Of a DNA stretch of 20,824 nt, positions 1,473 to 11,945 are shown piece by piece. The notes under the pieces are model-generated. The model was not told the DNA's origin. It did not search any database and saw nothing but the letters and a program-made list of their open reading frames with translations. The translations under genes and the position numbers were made by a program. Location: IMG/VR virus record IMGVR_UViG_2529293076_000030; one strand, given 5' to 3'. Every line of letters begins with the position of its first letter. The stretch's first letter is position 1. The DNA is from a virus (taxonomy: Duplodnaviria > Heunggongvirae > Uroviricota > Caudoviricetes).

Positions 1473-2297
1473 ATGCTGAGAAATGCAGTATTGAATTTAT
1501 CAATTTTTCACCAGCTTCTGGTCTTTCTGGCTGTCATGCGCAAAACATATGGCTTTAATAAAAAACTGGATTGGGTTAGCAACGAGCAACTTTCCGAATT
1601 AACCGGGATATTGCCGCACAAGTGTTCTGCTGCAAAAAGTGTTCTGGTAAAGCGTGGGATTTTTATTCAGAGCGGGCGGAATACCGGCATTAATAATGTG
1701 GTCAGTGAATGGTCAACATTACCCGAATCAGGTAAGAAAAATAAAGTTTACCTGAAAGAGGTAAATTTACCTGAATCAGGTAAAAAAAGTTTACCCAAAT
1801 CAGGTAAAGGCGTTTACCCGAATCAGGTAAACACAAAAGACAAACTAACAAAAGACAATATAAAACCTTTTTCGTCCGAGAATTCTGGCGAATCCTCTGA
1901 CCAACCAGAAAACGATCTTCCTGTGGTGAAACCGGATGCTGCAATTCAGAGCGGCAGCAAGTGGGGGACAGCAGAAGACCTGACCGCCGCAGAGTGGATG
2001 TTTGACATGGTGAAGACCATCGCGCCATCAGCCAGAAAACCGAATTTTGCAGGGTGGGCTAACGATATCCGCCTGATGCGTGAACGTGACGGACGTAACC
2101 ACCGCGACATGTGCGTGCTGTTCCGCTGGGCATGCCAGGACAACTTCTGGTCCGGTAACGTGCTAAGTCCGGCCAAACTCCGCGACAAGTGGACCCAGCT
2201 CGAAATCAACCGTAACAAGCAACAGGCAGGCATGATAGCCAGCAAACCAAAACTCGACCTGACAAACACTGACTGGATTTACGGGGTGGATTTATGA
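1473..2297 (+). CDS. O: Replication initiator O (274 aa); C-terminal two thirds near-identical to lambda O, N-terminal DNA-binding part divergent and about 36 aa shorter
   Basis: Residues from ~FSSENSGESSDQPENDL to the C-terminus (..TNTDWIYGVDL) match lambda O as I recall it. Central part encodes repeated LPESGKK peptides from the iterons. No SD before the ATG at 1473; the frame opens after a TGA at 1449-1451. Confidence 0.85.
   Translation: MLRNAVLNLSIFHQLLVFLAVMRKTYGFNKKLDWVSNEQLSELTGILPHKCSAAKSVLVKRGIFIQSGRNTGINNVVSEWSTLPESGKKNKVYLKEVNLPESGKKSLPKSGKGVYPNQVNTKDKLTKDNIKPFSSENSGESSDQPENDLPVVKPDAAIQSGSKWGTAEDLTAAEWMFDMVKTIAPSARKPNFAGWANDIRLMRERDGRNHRDMCVLFRWACQDNFWSGNVLSPAKLRDKWTQLEINRNKQQAGMIASKPKLDLTNTDWIYGVDL
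1719..1830. repeat. Replication origin iterons: five 17-bp near-palindromic repeats (TTACCYGAATCAGGTAA-like) inside the O gene, followed by an A-rich stretch (1831-1867)
   Basis: Repeats seen directly at 1719-1735, 1750-1766, 1767-1783, 1791-1807 and 1814-1830. Arrangement (iterons then AT-rich region within the O linker) matches the organisation of ori-lambda, but with five copies and a different repeat sequence. Confidence 0.75.
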
Positions 2298-2995
2298 AAA
2301 ACATCGCCGCACAGATGGTTAACTTTGACCGTGAGCAGATGCGTCGGATCGCCAACAACATGCCGGAACAGTACGACGAAAAGCCGCAGGTACAGCAGGT
2401 AGCGCAGATCATCAACGGTGTGTTCAGCCAGTTACTGGCAACTTTCCCGGCGAGTCTGGCTAACCGTGACCAGAACGAACTGAACGAAATCCGCCGCCAG
2501 TGGGTTCTGGCTTTCCGGGAAAACGGGATCACCACAATGGAACAGGTTAACGCAGGAATGCGCGTAGCCCGTCGGCAGAATCGACCATTTCTGCCATCAC
2601 CCGGGCAGTTTGTTGCATGGTGCCGGGAAGAAGCATCCGTTATCGCCGGACTGCCAAACGTCAGCGAGCTGGTTGATATGGTTTACGAGTATTGCCGGAA
2701 GCGTGGCCTGTATCCGGATGCAGAGTCTTATCCGTGGAAATCGAACGCGCATTACTGGTTGGTTACCAACTTGTACCAGAACATGCGGGCCAATGCGCTG
2801 ACTGACGCGGAATTACGGCGCAAGGCTGCCGATGAACTGACCTGTATGACAGCGCGAATTAACCGTGGTGAGACGATACCTGAACCAGTAAAACAACTTC
2901 CTGTTATGGGCGGTAGACCTCTAAATCGTGCACAGGCTCTGGCGAAGATCGCAGAAATTAAAGCTAAGTTCGGACTGAAAGGAGCAAGTGTATGA
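2294..2995 (+). CDS. P: Replication protein P (DnaB helicase loader), 233 aa
   Basis: Near-identical over full length to lambda P as recalled (MKNIAAQMVNFDREQMRRIANNMPEQYDEKPQ...AKFGLKGASV). ATGA overlap with O stop. Confidence 0.92.
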   Translation: MKNIAAQMVNFDREQMRRIANNMPEQYDEKPQVQQVAQIINGVFSQLLATFPASLANRDQNELNEIRRQWVLAFRENGITTMEQVNAGMRVARRQNRPFLPSPGQFVAWCREEASVIAGLPNVSELVDMVYEYCRKRGLYPDAESYPWKSNAHYWLVTNLYQNMRANALTDAELRRKAADELTCMTARINRGETIPEPVKQLPVMGGRPLNRAQALAKIAEIKAKFGLKGASV

Positions 2996-3294
2996 CGGGC
3001 AAAGAGGCAATTATTCATTACCTGGGGACGCATAAGAGCTTCTGTGCACAGGACGTTGCCGCGGTAACAGGTGCAACCGTAACCAGCATAAATCAGGCTG
3101 CGGCTAAAATGGCGCGGGCAGGAATCCTGGTCGTTGATGGTAAGGTCTGGCGAACGGTGTATTACCGGTTCGCTACCAGAGAAGAACGGGAAGGAAAGGT
3201 GAGCACGAATCTGATTTTTAAGGAGTGTCGCCAGAGTGCCGCGATGAAACGGGTATTGAGGGTATATAAAAGAACATCAATGGGTACACAATGA
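2992..3294 (+). CDS. ren: Ren protein (100 aa), C-terminal end differs from lambda Ren
   Basis: MTGKEAIIHYLGTHKSFCAQDVAAVTGATVTSINQAAAKMARAGILV... matches lambda Ren; the last ~10 residues diverge, consistent with a recombination junction at the 3' end. ATGA overlap with P. Confidence 0.8.
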   Translation: MTGKEAIIHYLGTHKSFCAQDVAAVTGATVTSINQAAAKMARAGILVVDGKVWRTVYYRFATREEREGKVSTNLIFKECRQSAAMKRVLRVYKRTSMGTQ

Positions 3295-3311
3295 TGAAAC
3301 AGGTGAGTTGA

Positions 3312-3346
3312 GTTCAAACTGTAGTACAATTCTCTCCAGTTTGAAC
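3312..3346 (+). promoter_or_regulatory. Perfect 10-bp inverted repeat (GTTCAAACTG / CAGTTTGAAC) with 15-nt loop, 15 nt upstream of emrE start; function unknown
   Basis: Seen directly. No U-tract follows, so not a canonical intrinsic terminator. An SD-like AGGAAAG (3347-3353) follows before the emrE ATG at 3362. Confidence 0.3.
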
Positions 3347-3361
3347 AGGAAAGAATATGTT

Positions 3362-3694
3362 ATGAACCCTTATATTTATCTTGGTGGTGCAATACTTGCA
3401 GAGGTCATTGGTACAACCTTAATGAAGTTTTCAGAAGGTTTTACACGGTTATGGCCATCTGTTGGTACAATTATTTGTTATTGTGCATCATTCTGGTTAT
3501 TAGCTCAGACGCTGGCTTATATTCCTACAGGGATTGCTTATGCTATCTGGTCAGGAGTCGGTATTGTCCTGATTAGCTTACTATCATGGGGGTTTTTCGG
3601 CCAACGGCTGGACCTGCCAGCCGTTATAGGCATGATGTTGATTTGTGCCGGTGTGTTGGTTATTAATTTATTGTCACGAAGCACACCACATTAA
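3362..3694 (+). CDS. emrE: Small multidrug resistance (SMR) efflux transporter EmrE, 110 aa
   Basis: MNPYIYLGGAILAEVIGTTLMKFSEGFTRLWPSVGTIICY... matches E. coli EmrE essentially full length, including the conserved membrane-embedded Glu (E14) context. The ORF-track start at 3308 is an upstream extension. Confidence 0.92.
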   Translation: MNPYIYLGGAILAEVIGTTLMKFSEGFTRLWPSVGTIICYCASFWLLAQTLAYIPTGIAYAIWSGVGIVLISLLSWGFFGQRLDLPAVIGMMLICAGVLVINLLSRSTPH

Positions 3695-9636: not shown

Positions 9637-9930
9637 TTATTGTGAGCAATACACACGCGCTTCCAGCGGAGTATAAATGCCTAAAGTAATAAAACCGAGC
9701 AATCCATTTACGAATGTTTGCTGGGTTTCTGTTTTAACAACATTTTCTGCGCCGCCACAAATTTTAGCTGCATCGACAGTTTTCTTCTGCCCAATTCCAG
9801 AGACGAAGAAATGGTGGGTGATGGTTTCCTTTGGTGTTACTGCTGCCGGTTTGTTTTGAACAGTAAACGTCTGTTGGGCACATCCTGTAATAAGCAGGGC
9901 CAGCGCAGTAGCGAGTAGCATTTTTTTCAT
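9637..9930 (-). CDS. bor: Bor lipoprotein (serum-resistance moron), 97 aa
   Basis: MKKMLLATALALLITGCAQQTFTVQNKPAAVTPKETITHHFFVSGIGQKK... essentially identical to lambda Bor. Lipobox LITGC. Confidence 0.92.
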   Translation of the reverse strand: MKKMLLATALALLITGCAQQTFTVQNKPAAVTPKETITHHFFVSGIGQKKTVDAAKICGGAENVVKTETQQTFVNGLLGFITLGIYTPLEARVYCSQ

Positions 9931-10211
9931 GGTGTTATTCCCGATGCTTTTTAAAGTTCGCAGAATCGTATGTGTAGAAAATTAAACAAACCCTAAACAA
10001 TGAGTTGAAATCTCATATTGTTAATATTTATTAATGTATGTCAGATGCGAAGGATCGTCACTGTATTCCCGGATTAACTATGTCCGCAGCCCTGACAGGG
10101 AAACTCCTCTGCGGGAGTGTCCGGGAATAATTAATAACGATGCACACAGGGTTTAGCGCGTACACGTATTGAACCGCCCCGGTTTTCCTGGAGAGTGTTT
10201 TATCTGTGAAC

Positions 10212-11099
10212 TCAGGCTGCCAGATCATCGTTTCTGATGGAAGCATAATAAGCTTTTTCTGCTTCTGCCGGAGGGATATGACCCAGCCTTCCCAGCAATC
10301 GTCGATTGTTATACCAGTCCACCCACGTGAGTGTGGCCAGTTCCACTTCTGCACGGTTTTTCCAGCTCTTACGGTGTATTACCTCCGCTTTGTAAAGACC
10401 ATTGATGCTCTCCGCCATCGCGTTGTCATACGAGTCACCTGTACTCCCTGTTGATGCCAGCAGTTTTGCTTCTTTTAGTCGCTCCGTATAGGCCAGTGAT
10501 ATATACTGAGAACCTTTATCACTGTGATGGACTGTGCCGGACGGCCGACGGGCCCACAACGCCTGCTCCAGTGCATCCAGCACGAATGTCGTTTCCATAG
10601 ACGATGAGACTCGCCACCCCACGATACATCCGGCAAACACATCAATGATGAACGCCACATAGACGAAGCCCTGCCATGTGCTGACGTAAGTAAAATCAGC
10701 CACCCACAGCTGGTCAGGACGTTCTGCCACGAACTGACGGTTTACGCGGTCGCCTGCGGAAACGGCTTTCCGGCTGACGGTAGTACGGACCTTTTTACCC
10801 CGGAGAACACCGGCAAGTCCCATAACCGCCATGAGGCGCGCCACTGTACATCTGGCCACCCTGATACCTTCGCGTAACAACTGGCGCCAGACTTTACGCA
10901 CACCGTACACCTGATGATTTTCATCGTATACGCGCTGTATCTCTCTCTTCAGCCAGTCATCGCGCTGAGCACGGGCACTGCGTTTATCAGGATGATGTCG
11001 CTGTTGCTGACAGTGGTAATACGTTGACGGGGCAATATGCAGTTCACTGCATACCGGTCCGACCCCGTACTGCTCACGCAGCTTATCCAGCAGCGGCAT
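10212..11099 (-). CDS. IS629-type transposase OrfB (DDE integrase-like catalytic domain), 295 aa from first ATG; normally expressed as an OrfAB fusion by -1 frameshift
   Basis: Contains DDE-type motifs (WVADFTY..., HSDKGSQY..., YDNAMAESINGLYKAE) characteristic of IS3-family transposases. In the -1 frame relative to orfA. Confidence 0.85.
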   Translation of the reverse strand: MPLLDKLREQYGVGPVCSELHIAPSTYYHCQQQRHHPDKRSARAQRDDWLKREIQRVYDENHQVYGVRKVWRQLLREGIRVARCTVARLMAVMGLAGVLRGKKVRTTVSRKAVSAGDRVNRQFVAERPDQLWVADFTYVSTWQGFVYVAFIIDVFAGCIVGWRVSSSMETTFVLDALEQALWARRPSGTVHHSDKGSQYISLAYTERLKEAKLLASTGSTGDSYDNAMAESINGLYKAEVIHRKSWKNRAEVELATLTWVDWYNNRRLLGRLGHIPPAEAEKAYYASIRNDDLAA

Positions 11100-11425
11100 T
11101 ATTTTTTCCAGAGGCGGTCGAACTCCGCCTTCGCAAAATAAGCGGAAGCCTGGCGAAGGATATCGTTACTGCGGCGCAGTTCACGATTTTCACGTTCCAG
11201 CTCTTTCAGACGCTGACGTTCAGCGGTGGTGAGTCCACCATCACCACTCCCGGTATCCCGCTCATGCTGACGAACCCACACACGCAGAGTCTCTGGTGTA
11301 CAGCCAATCTTTGGGGCAATGGAACAAATTGCCGCCCATTGTGAGTCATATTCGCCCTGACTTTCCAGAACCATACGAACTGCTCGTTGACGGACCTCGG
11401 GGGAAAAACGTGTATTTTTAGTCAT
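11099..11425 (-). CDS. IS629-type transposase OrfA (108 aa, HTH/leucine-zipper part)
   Basis: [57 protein letters not shown]... typical IS3-family OrfA. Ends ...WKK* at an A6 run that overlaps the orfB start. Confidence 0.85.
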
Positions 11426-11534
11426 CCTGTTTACCTCTTTCTCAGGGAGTTTAGTCTCCAGGATTCCCGGGGCGGTTCATATTGCATTATGCCAACGCCC
11501 CGGTGCTGACACGGAAGAAACCGGACGTGATGAT

Positions 11535-11945
11535 TTAGCGTGGAAAGATTTGTGTAGTGTTCTGAATGCTCTCAGTAAATAGTAATGAATTATCAAAGGC
11601 ATAGTAATATCTTTTATGTTCGTGGATATTTGTAACCCATCGGAAAACTCCTGCTTTAGCAAGATTTTCCCTGTATTGCTGAAATGTGATTTCTCTTGAT
11701 TTCAACCTATCATAGGACGTTTCTATAAGATGCGTATTTCTTGAGAATTTAACATTCACAACCTTTTTAAGTCCTTTTATTAACACAGTGTTATCGTTTT
11801 CTAACACAATGTGAATATTATCTGTGGCTAGATAGTAAATATAATGTGAGACATTGTGACGTTTTAGTTCAGAATAAAACAATTCACAGTTTAAATCTTT
11901 TCGCACTTGATCGAATATTTCTTTAAAAATGGCAACCTGAGCCAT
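11535..11945 (-). CDS. ybcV: YbcV-like protein (homologue of lambda ORF p78, DUF1398-type), 136 aa from the SD-preceded ATG; the ORF extends to 12068 if the upstream ATG is used
   Basis: [43 protein letters not shown]... Position between bor and cos as in lambda. SD GGAAGG precedes the ATG at 11945; none precedes the ATG at 12068. AT-rich. Confidence 0.6.

Follow-up and report, generated by a model that had tools for sequence, protein, structure and literature searches.

The bor-ybcV spacer of a DLP12-like lambdoid prophage has very probably (a probability of about 95%) received, by transposition, an intact IS629 (IS3 family) that belongs to the second sequence subtype found in E. coli O157:H7. 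The element is a complete IS629-type insertion sequence of 1310 bp at positions 10170-11479 of the window, which is the whole 20,824-nucleotide stretch of DNA that was analysed; its transposase genes are on the minus strand, and it is bordered on each side by a TAT trinucleotide (left copy, 10167-10169; right copy, 11480-11482) that represents a 3-bp target-site duplication. IS629 itself is a well-known and ordinary element found here in a typical location; the novelty is the exact insertion site only. A sequence-only reading of the window had described a complete IS629-type element at 10167-11482, TAT copies included, with both terminal inverted repeats and both transposase ORFs intact; the boundaries, the IS629 identity and the integrity of these parts all withstood comparison with known copies.

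The Host Prophage

The prophage is the O157:H7 counterpart of DLP12, with genes arranged as int, xis, truncated O, P, ren, emrE, ybcK, ybcN, ninE, ybcO, rusA, ylcG, Q, S, R, Rz, bor, the IS, ybcV, ybcW, ylcI and nohD, followed by the terminase and head genes. For the regions 1509-2297 and 3362-3694, annotation transferred from near-identical genomes gives a 5'-truncated O pseudogene beside an intact P, and the multidrug efflux gene emrE, as in the DLP12 prophage of K-12. Because O is truncated, the prophage is probably defective for replication despite its intact head genes. In O157:H7, 62% of IS629 sites are located in prophages (Rump et al. 2011, PMC3271280).

Boundaries, Terminal Repeats and Identity of the Element

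Of the two terminal inverted repeats, the orfB-distal one, IRR, occupies 10170-10194, toward bor, and coincides in its 25-nt position with the IRR given in the AP000422 annotation; the orfA-proximal repeat, IRL, occupies 11455-11479, toward the 3' end of ybcV. Each repeat is 25 nt long and the two match at 22 of 25 positions (88% complementary), with the first 13 nt, TGAACCGCCCCGG, the same in both. The exact 13-mer is found in the window at the two IS ends only, with one further match elsewhere that contains two mismatches; in the window scan, none of 100 shuffles gave at least three matches. The junctions between the IS and its flanks read GCGCGTACACGTAT/TGAACCGCCCCGG and CCGGGGCGGTTCA/TATTGCATTATGCC. 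A length of approximately 1310 bp and imperfect 25-bp inverted repeats starting with TGAACCGCCCCGG, both characteristic of IS629, are therefore features of the window element.

High nucleotide identity to reference copies extends over the full length of the element: 95.4% to the annotated IS629 of phage VT2-Sakai (60 mismatches in 1310 positions, no gaps), 99.5% to the IS629 of the O55:H7 phage JLK-2012 (seven mismatches), and 100%, across all 1310 bp, both to the phage PA28 copy and to those that many O157:H7 genomes, among them EC4115, TW14359 and SS17, carry at unrelated loci. In ISfinder usage, an identity of about 95% or more denotes an isoform. The second-subtype copies of EC4115, TW14359 and PA28 differ from the copy in the window by insertion site alone; identical copies are labelled by PGAP as 'IS3 family transposase, programmed frameshift'.

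The VT2-Sakai copy (AP000422, 24900-26209) is an IS1203/IS1203v isoform and represents sub-type I of Rump et al. (2011). It shares with the window element the length of 1310 bp, the positions of the 25-nt repeats, an orfA that starts at element position 55, an orfB that ends at element position 1268, and the same slippery motifs and pseudoknot region; the two are separated by 60 substitutions, and one position of IRL differs (GGGAAT in VT2-Sakai, GGAAAT in the window). O157:H7 carries two IS629 sub-types that differ by 4-5%, one of which is IS1203-like (Rump et al. 2011, PMC3271280); the two IS types seen here fit these two sub-types, matched by description.

Transposase Genes and Frameshift Signal

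Both transposase genes are open on the minus strand. The first, orfA (11099-11425), starts at element position 55, as in annotated IS629, and encodes a 108 aa DNA-binding protein identified as an ORF with a Pfam HTH_Tnp_1 match; the exact protein sequence is present in a public collection, on 851 contigs. The second, orfB (10212-11099), encodes a 295 aa protein with HTH_21, rve and rve_3 (integrase core) domains, and lies in the -1 frame relative to orfA with an overlap of 1 nt (TAATG). The organization of IS629, in which an orfA product of about 108 aa with a helix-turn-helix is followed in the -1 frame, across a short overlap, by an orfB product of about 296 aa, is the organization seen here. 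The DD(35)E signature of the IS3 family can be read off the OrfB sequence inside the Pfam rve/rve_3 matches: D135 (WVADFTY), D194 (HHSDKGSQY) and E230 (NAMAESINGLYK), the last two separated by 35 residues, and a lysine, K237, at the position seven residues past the glutamate where the family displays K or R. D135, D194 and E230 are putative catalytic residues on the basis of this motif.

Read in the direction of the element, the overlap region is GCT TAT TTT GCG AAG GCG GAG TTC GAC CGC CTC TGG AAA AAA TAA TG, and two candidate -1 slippery sites are present on this strand. The T_TTT_G motif (11134-11138, minus strand) is located 5 nt upstream of stem-loop I of the ALIL frameshift-stimulating pseudoknot and falls within the 5' stretch that the ALIL model leaves unpaired; the second candidate, an A_AAA_AAT run (11101-11107, minus strand), abuts the orfA stop codon TAA. 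The pseudoknot itself (Rfam RF01497; 11028-11144, minus strand) scored 120.9 bits (gathering score 50) over model positions 1-117 of 117 and without truncation; ALIL has been described as a -1 frameshift stimulator in no fewer than 27 IS elements besides IS3411 (PMC5009743). The -1 signal of the IS3 family, a slippery motif with a downstream RNA structure, is thus predicted from the sequence of the window element. A -1 fusion at T_TTT_G or at A_AAA_AAT would in either case yield a 404 aa OrfAB; both fusion sequences are present in public databases as annotated 'IS3 family transposase', the A_AAA_AAT version in NCBI. The T_TTT_G fusion matches the NCBIfam profile NF033516 (IS3 transposase) with 369.2 bits (cutoff 160) across profile positions 1-369 of 369, a full-length match to the family profile. 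With two slippery motifs, a 404 aa product from either, and a full-length ALIL, the orfA/orfB frameshift window was found to be intact.

In IS629/IS1203v, orfA and orfB are in the 0 and -1 frames and OrfAB is the transposase (bioRxiv 10.1101/2023.06.07.543989; PMC9943667). By analogy with the family, the active transposase of the window copy would be the 404 aa OrfAB, produced by programmed -1 frameshifting under ALIL stimulation, and transposition would be expected to proceed by copy-out-paste-in through a circular intermediate, as for other IS3-family members. In O157:H7, IEE promotes transposase-dependent excision of IS629 as well as adjacent deletions (bioRxiv 10.1101/2023.06.07.543989; PMC9943667), and could help to excise the window copy in an O157 host.

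It is very improbable that the window copy is a defective relic, complete in appearance but unable to transpose. Such a view could draw on the stop codon of orfA, which is TAA in the window subtype and TGA in the IS1203 subtype, VT2-Sakai included; as a result of this change the first ATG of orfB is lost, so that orfB starts one codon later and encodes 295 aa instead of 296 aa, and the base following the A-run differs likewise (AAAAAAT-A in the window subtype, AAAAAAT-G in the IS1203 subtype). However, strains 272 and 3-5-1 have the TAA variant in their copies, as does the JLK-2012 element, and it is therefore not considered a lesion; the reading frames, inverted repeats, slippery motifs and pseudoknot are all intact. 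Furthermore, other genomes carry 100% identical copies at several different loci, which points to recent transposition of exactly this sequence and is indirect evidence of activity; an intact IS629 is the preferred reading.

Target Duplication and Empty Site

Target duplications of IS629 are 3-4 bp in length (Rump et al. 2011, PMC3271280); the window element is flanked by TAT on both sides, and a single TAT is found in the empty sites. The TAT match taken by itself is weak evidence, since a 3-nt agreement between the flanks has a chance of about 0.02 under the local composition; comparison with the empty site is decisive and proves the target duplication. If the IS and one TAT (1313 bp) are removed from the window, 19,511 bp remain, which is the exact length of the matching stretch in O157:H7 strain 17B6-2; the IS-removed window and this IS-free prophage (L003) differ at two positions over 19.5 kb, window 16695 and 17125, both in the portal protein gene and both more than 5 kb from the IS. 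The flanks are otherwise unchanged from the IS-free prophage. The reconstructed empty site of 335 bp is 100% identical in many O157:H7 genomes and is covered to at least 80% in 948 of 5,426 complete E. coli genomes; phages lambda and HK630 feature the same sequence uninterrupted, with 96% identity overall and an invariant stretch of tens of bases on each side of the single TAT. The TAT duplication had been taken by the sequence-only reading to indicate a simple insertion without later rearrangement, and this is borne out by the single TAT and contiguous flanks of IS-free O157:H7 prophages, lambda and HK630. Staggered cleavage and repair turned the single TAT target into the 3-bp direct repeats around the IS.

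The site is rare amongst sequenced genomes. The IS junction of the window was present in none of the 5,426 complete E. coli genomes, for which an 87-nt left-junction query returned no record at a coverage of at least 80%, and the exact left-junction 33-mer had no match in species-representative genome contigs or metagenome contigs; a 2.5-kb query spanning the IS was covered to at least 80% only by strain 272 among the complete E. coli genomes, with a different junction. There is weak negative evidence that the site is not among the 47 IS629 sites catalogued by Rump et al. (2011), as none of their 63 flanking primers maps to the window with one mismatch or fewer; the primer that matches is IS-internal (10439-10458).

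This rarity could be expected if the IS position were an assembly artefact, or a rearrangement junction with a coincidental TAT/TAT, and the chance of about 2% for a 3-nt match leaves some room for such a coincidence; nevertheless, the likelihood of this explanation is considered negligible. Both junctions are located exactly at the IS termini, and deletion of the IS with one TAT restores the IS-free prophage except for the two distant SNPs; a precise target duplication is not made by mis-assembly of repeats, and collinear flanks are not left by rearrangement. Transposition of IS629 into the spacer is the reading retained.

Inverted-repeat-like targeting has been described for some IS3-family members. 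In the right flank, positions 11491-11503 read GCCAACGCCCCGG, which resembles the IS629 terminal repeat TGAACCGCCCCGG at 9 of 13 positions, includes the exact 8-mer CGCCCCGG, and is located 11 bp from IRL. Insertion directed to an inverted repeat through GCCAACGCCCCGG was rejected, as the match is 9/13 only, was spotted after the fact, and falls short of significance in a simple count.

The bor-ybcV Spacer

The IS had been placed 240 bp upstream of bor, in the spacer between bor and ybcV, the latter equated with lambda p78; the distance from the IS end to the bor ATG is 239 nt, and ybcV does correspond to lambda p78. The serum-resistance lipoprotein gene bor (9637-9930; Lambda_Bor, 1e-30), the transposase genes and ybcV (11535-11945; DUF1398, 2e-46) are all on the minus strand, and transposase transcription runs toward bor, which lies downstream of the IS; the ybcV stop codon begins at 11537, and the gap between ybcV and the IS is 55 nt (52 nt to the right TAT).

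The portion of the spacer between the IS and bor (10050-10169, minus strand) is predicted from inverted repeats and RNA folding to be structured, with two hairpins and a minus-strand RNA fold of -43.9 kcal/mol (z = -3.4). One hairpin, terminator-like, spans 10165-10140, and the other, which is larger, spans 10064-10129; the inverted repeats that the earlier reading noted in the spacer, for example at 10063-10140, include perfect 10-nt arms at 10064-10073 and 10120-10129. Both hairpins are conserved from the O157 prophage to phage lambda; an Rfam search of the empty site by E-value returned no family for the spacer and a single chance miRNA match (E = 0.8). Upstream of bor, a promoter-like match at 10044-10017 is not above chance, and the count of promoter-like matches in the region is below the shuffle mean; the promoter annotated by the HK630 authors corresponds to approximately 10086-10060 of the window.

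The spacer has received a second, independent IS629-family insertion, of the IS1203 type, with target AAC at window-equivalent positions 10076-10078 (L002 10079-11388), which is found in 25 of the 5,426 complete genomes (strain 28RC1 and 24 others) and interrupts the large hairpin and the HK630-annotated promoter. The 28RC1 insertion and that of the window are in the same prophage and spacer, and both feature a 3-bp duplication and a complete 1310-bp element; the 28RC1 insertion, in contrast, is 91 bp nearer to bor, targets AAC, has the opposite orientation, and belongs to the other subtype (61 mismatches).

Effect on bor and ybcV

The window insertion probably has little effect on bor, since 239 nt of native DNA remain upstream of the gene, with both hairpins and the predicted promoters in place. 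It is suggested that bor retains its own control region, shielded by the hairpins from transcription reading out of the IS; this model draws on predicted hairpins and on promoter-like matches that do not exceed chance. The native downstream hairpins of ybcV, by contrast, now lie beyond the IS, and read-through transcription from ybcV would enter orfA in the sense direction, with the transposase genes in its path.

A regulatory effect of the IS on bor or ybcV, whether through read-out from the transposase genes, a hybrid promoter facing outward or the loss of control from upstream, for which the insertion would have been retained, appears unlikely. Some features would accommodate it: the transposase genes point toward bor, with no terminator-like site found from the orfB stop (10212) to the end of the IS; ybcV is now separated by the IS from its native downstream hairpins; and the IS1203 insertion at the AAC site, inside the HK630-annotated promoter, is fixed in 25 complete genomes, which suggests that the spacer tolerates IS insertions, or that these may be under selection. 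However, no outward or hybrid promoter is reported at the IS ends and no consensus-like promoter spans the IS-flank junction; the IS is separated from bor by two hairpins, one of them terminator-like; the retained upstream sequence of bor includes both the promoter-like match and the HK630-annotated promoter region; and the window insertion is found in no other genome, giving no sign of spread or selection. An insertion with little consequence for bor is the favored reading.

Further IS Events in the Prophage

In strain 3-5-1 the prophage contains two IS copies that differ in subtype (L004 6432-7741 and 11393-12702), one at ybcN/ninE, the other at the AAC site; the ybcN/ninE copy is preceded by CAC and followed by ACAC. 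Strain 7.1_Anguil displays an IS1203 copy in rusA (L005 7221-8530) with a target duplication of AAC. In strain 272 the ybcN-side IS629 (L001 6001-7310), which has no mismatches to the 3-5-1 copy, directly adjoins window-equivalent position 10078, and ninE, ybcO, rusA, ylcG, Q, the holin, lysozyme and Rz genes, and bor are deleted; the deletion ends 2 bp into the right-hand copy of the target duplication at the AAC site. This has the appearance of an IS-adjacent deletion, possibly of the IEE type. Strain 272, where IS629 bounds the ninE-bor deletion in the same prophage, thus offers an example of what the earlier reading proposed, namely that an IS at this place can serve as a substrate for rearrangement of the prophage.

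A related prophage in strain 98E11 (L010, approximately 2130-3440) contains an IS3-family, IS629-like element about 300 bp upstream of iss, a homologue of bor, followed directly by ylcI; ybcV and ybcW are absent. A further IS-associated deletion in the corresponding region may account for this arrangement.

The bor-ybcV spacer appears from these cases to have been hit repeatedly by IS629-family events. It could further be proposed that this conserved, hairpin-rich spacer of lambdoid prophages is a preferred regional target of IS629-family elements, and that insertions tune expression of the serum-resistance lipoprotein Bor/Iss between near-identical O157 strains; the events that prompt this idea are the TAT site of the window, the AAC site 91 bp away in 25 genomes, the deletion endpoint within 2 bp of the AAC site, and the IS near iss in 98E11, and the idea is regarded as quite doubtful.

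Implications

The insertion teaches nothing new on IS biology. If the insertion did change bor expression, this would have a modest bearing on how serum resistance differs between strains, but nothing here points to such a change. As a strain-specific IS629 site, the insertion is a possible typing or lineage marker, comparable to those used in IS-printing; it is also one further example of the build-up of IS629 in O157:H7 prophages, where the element seeds deletions.
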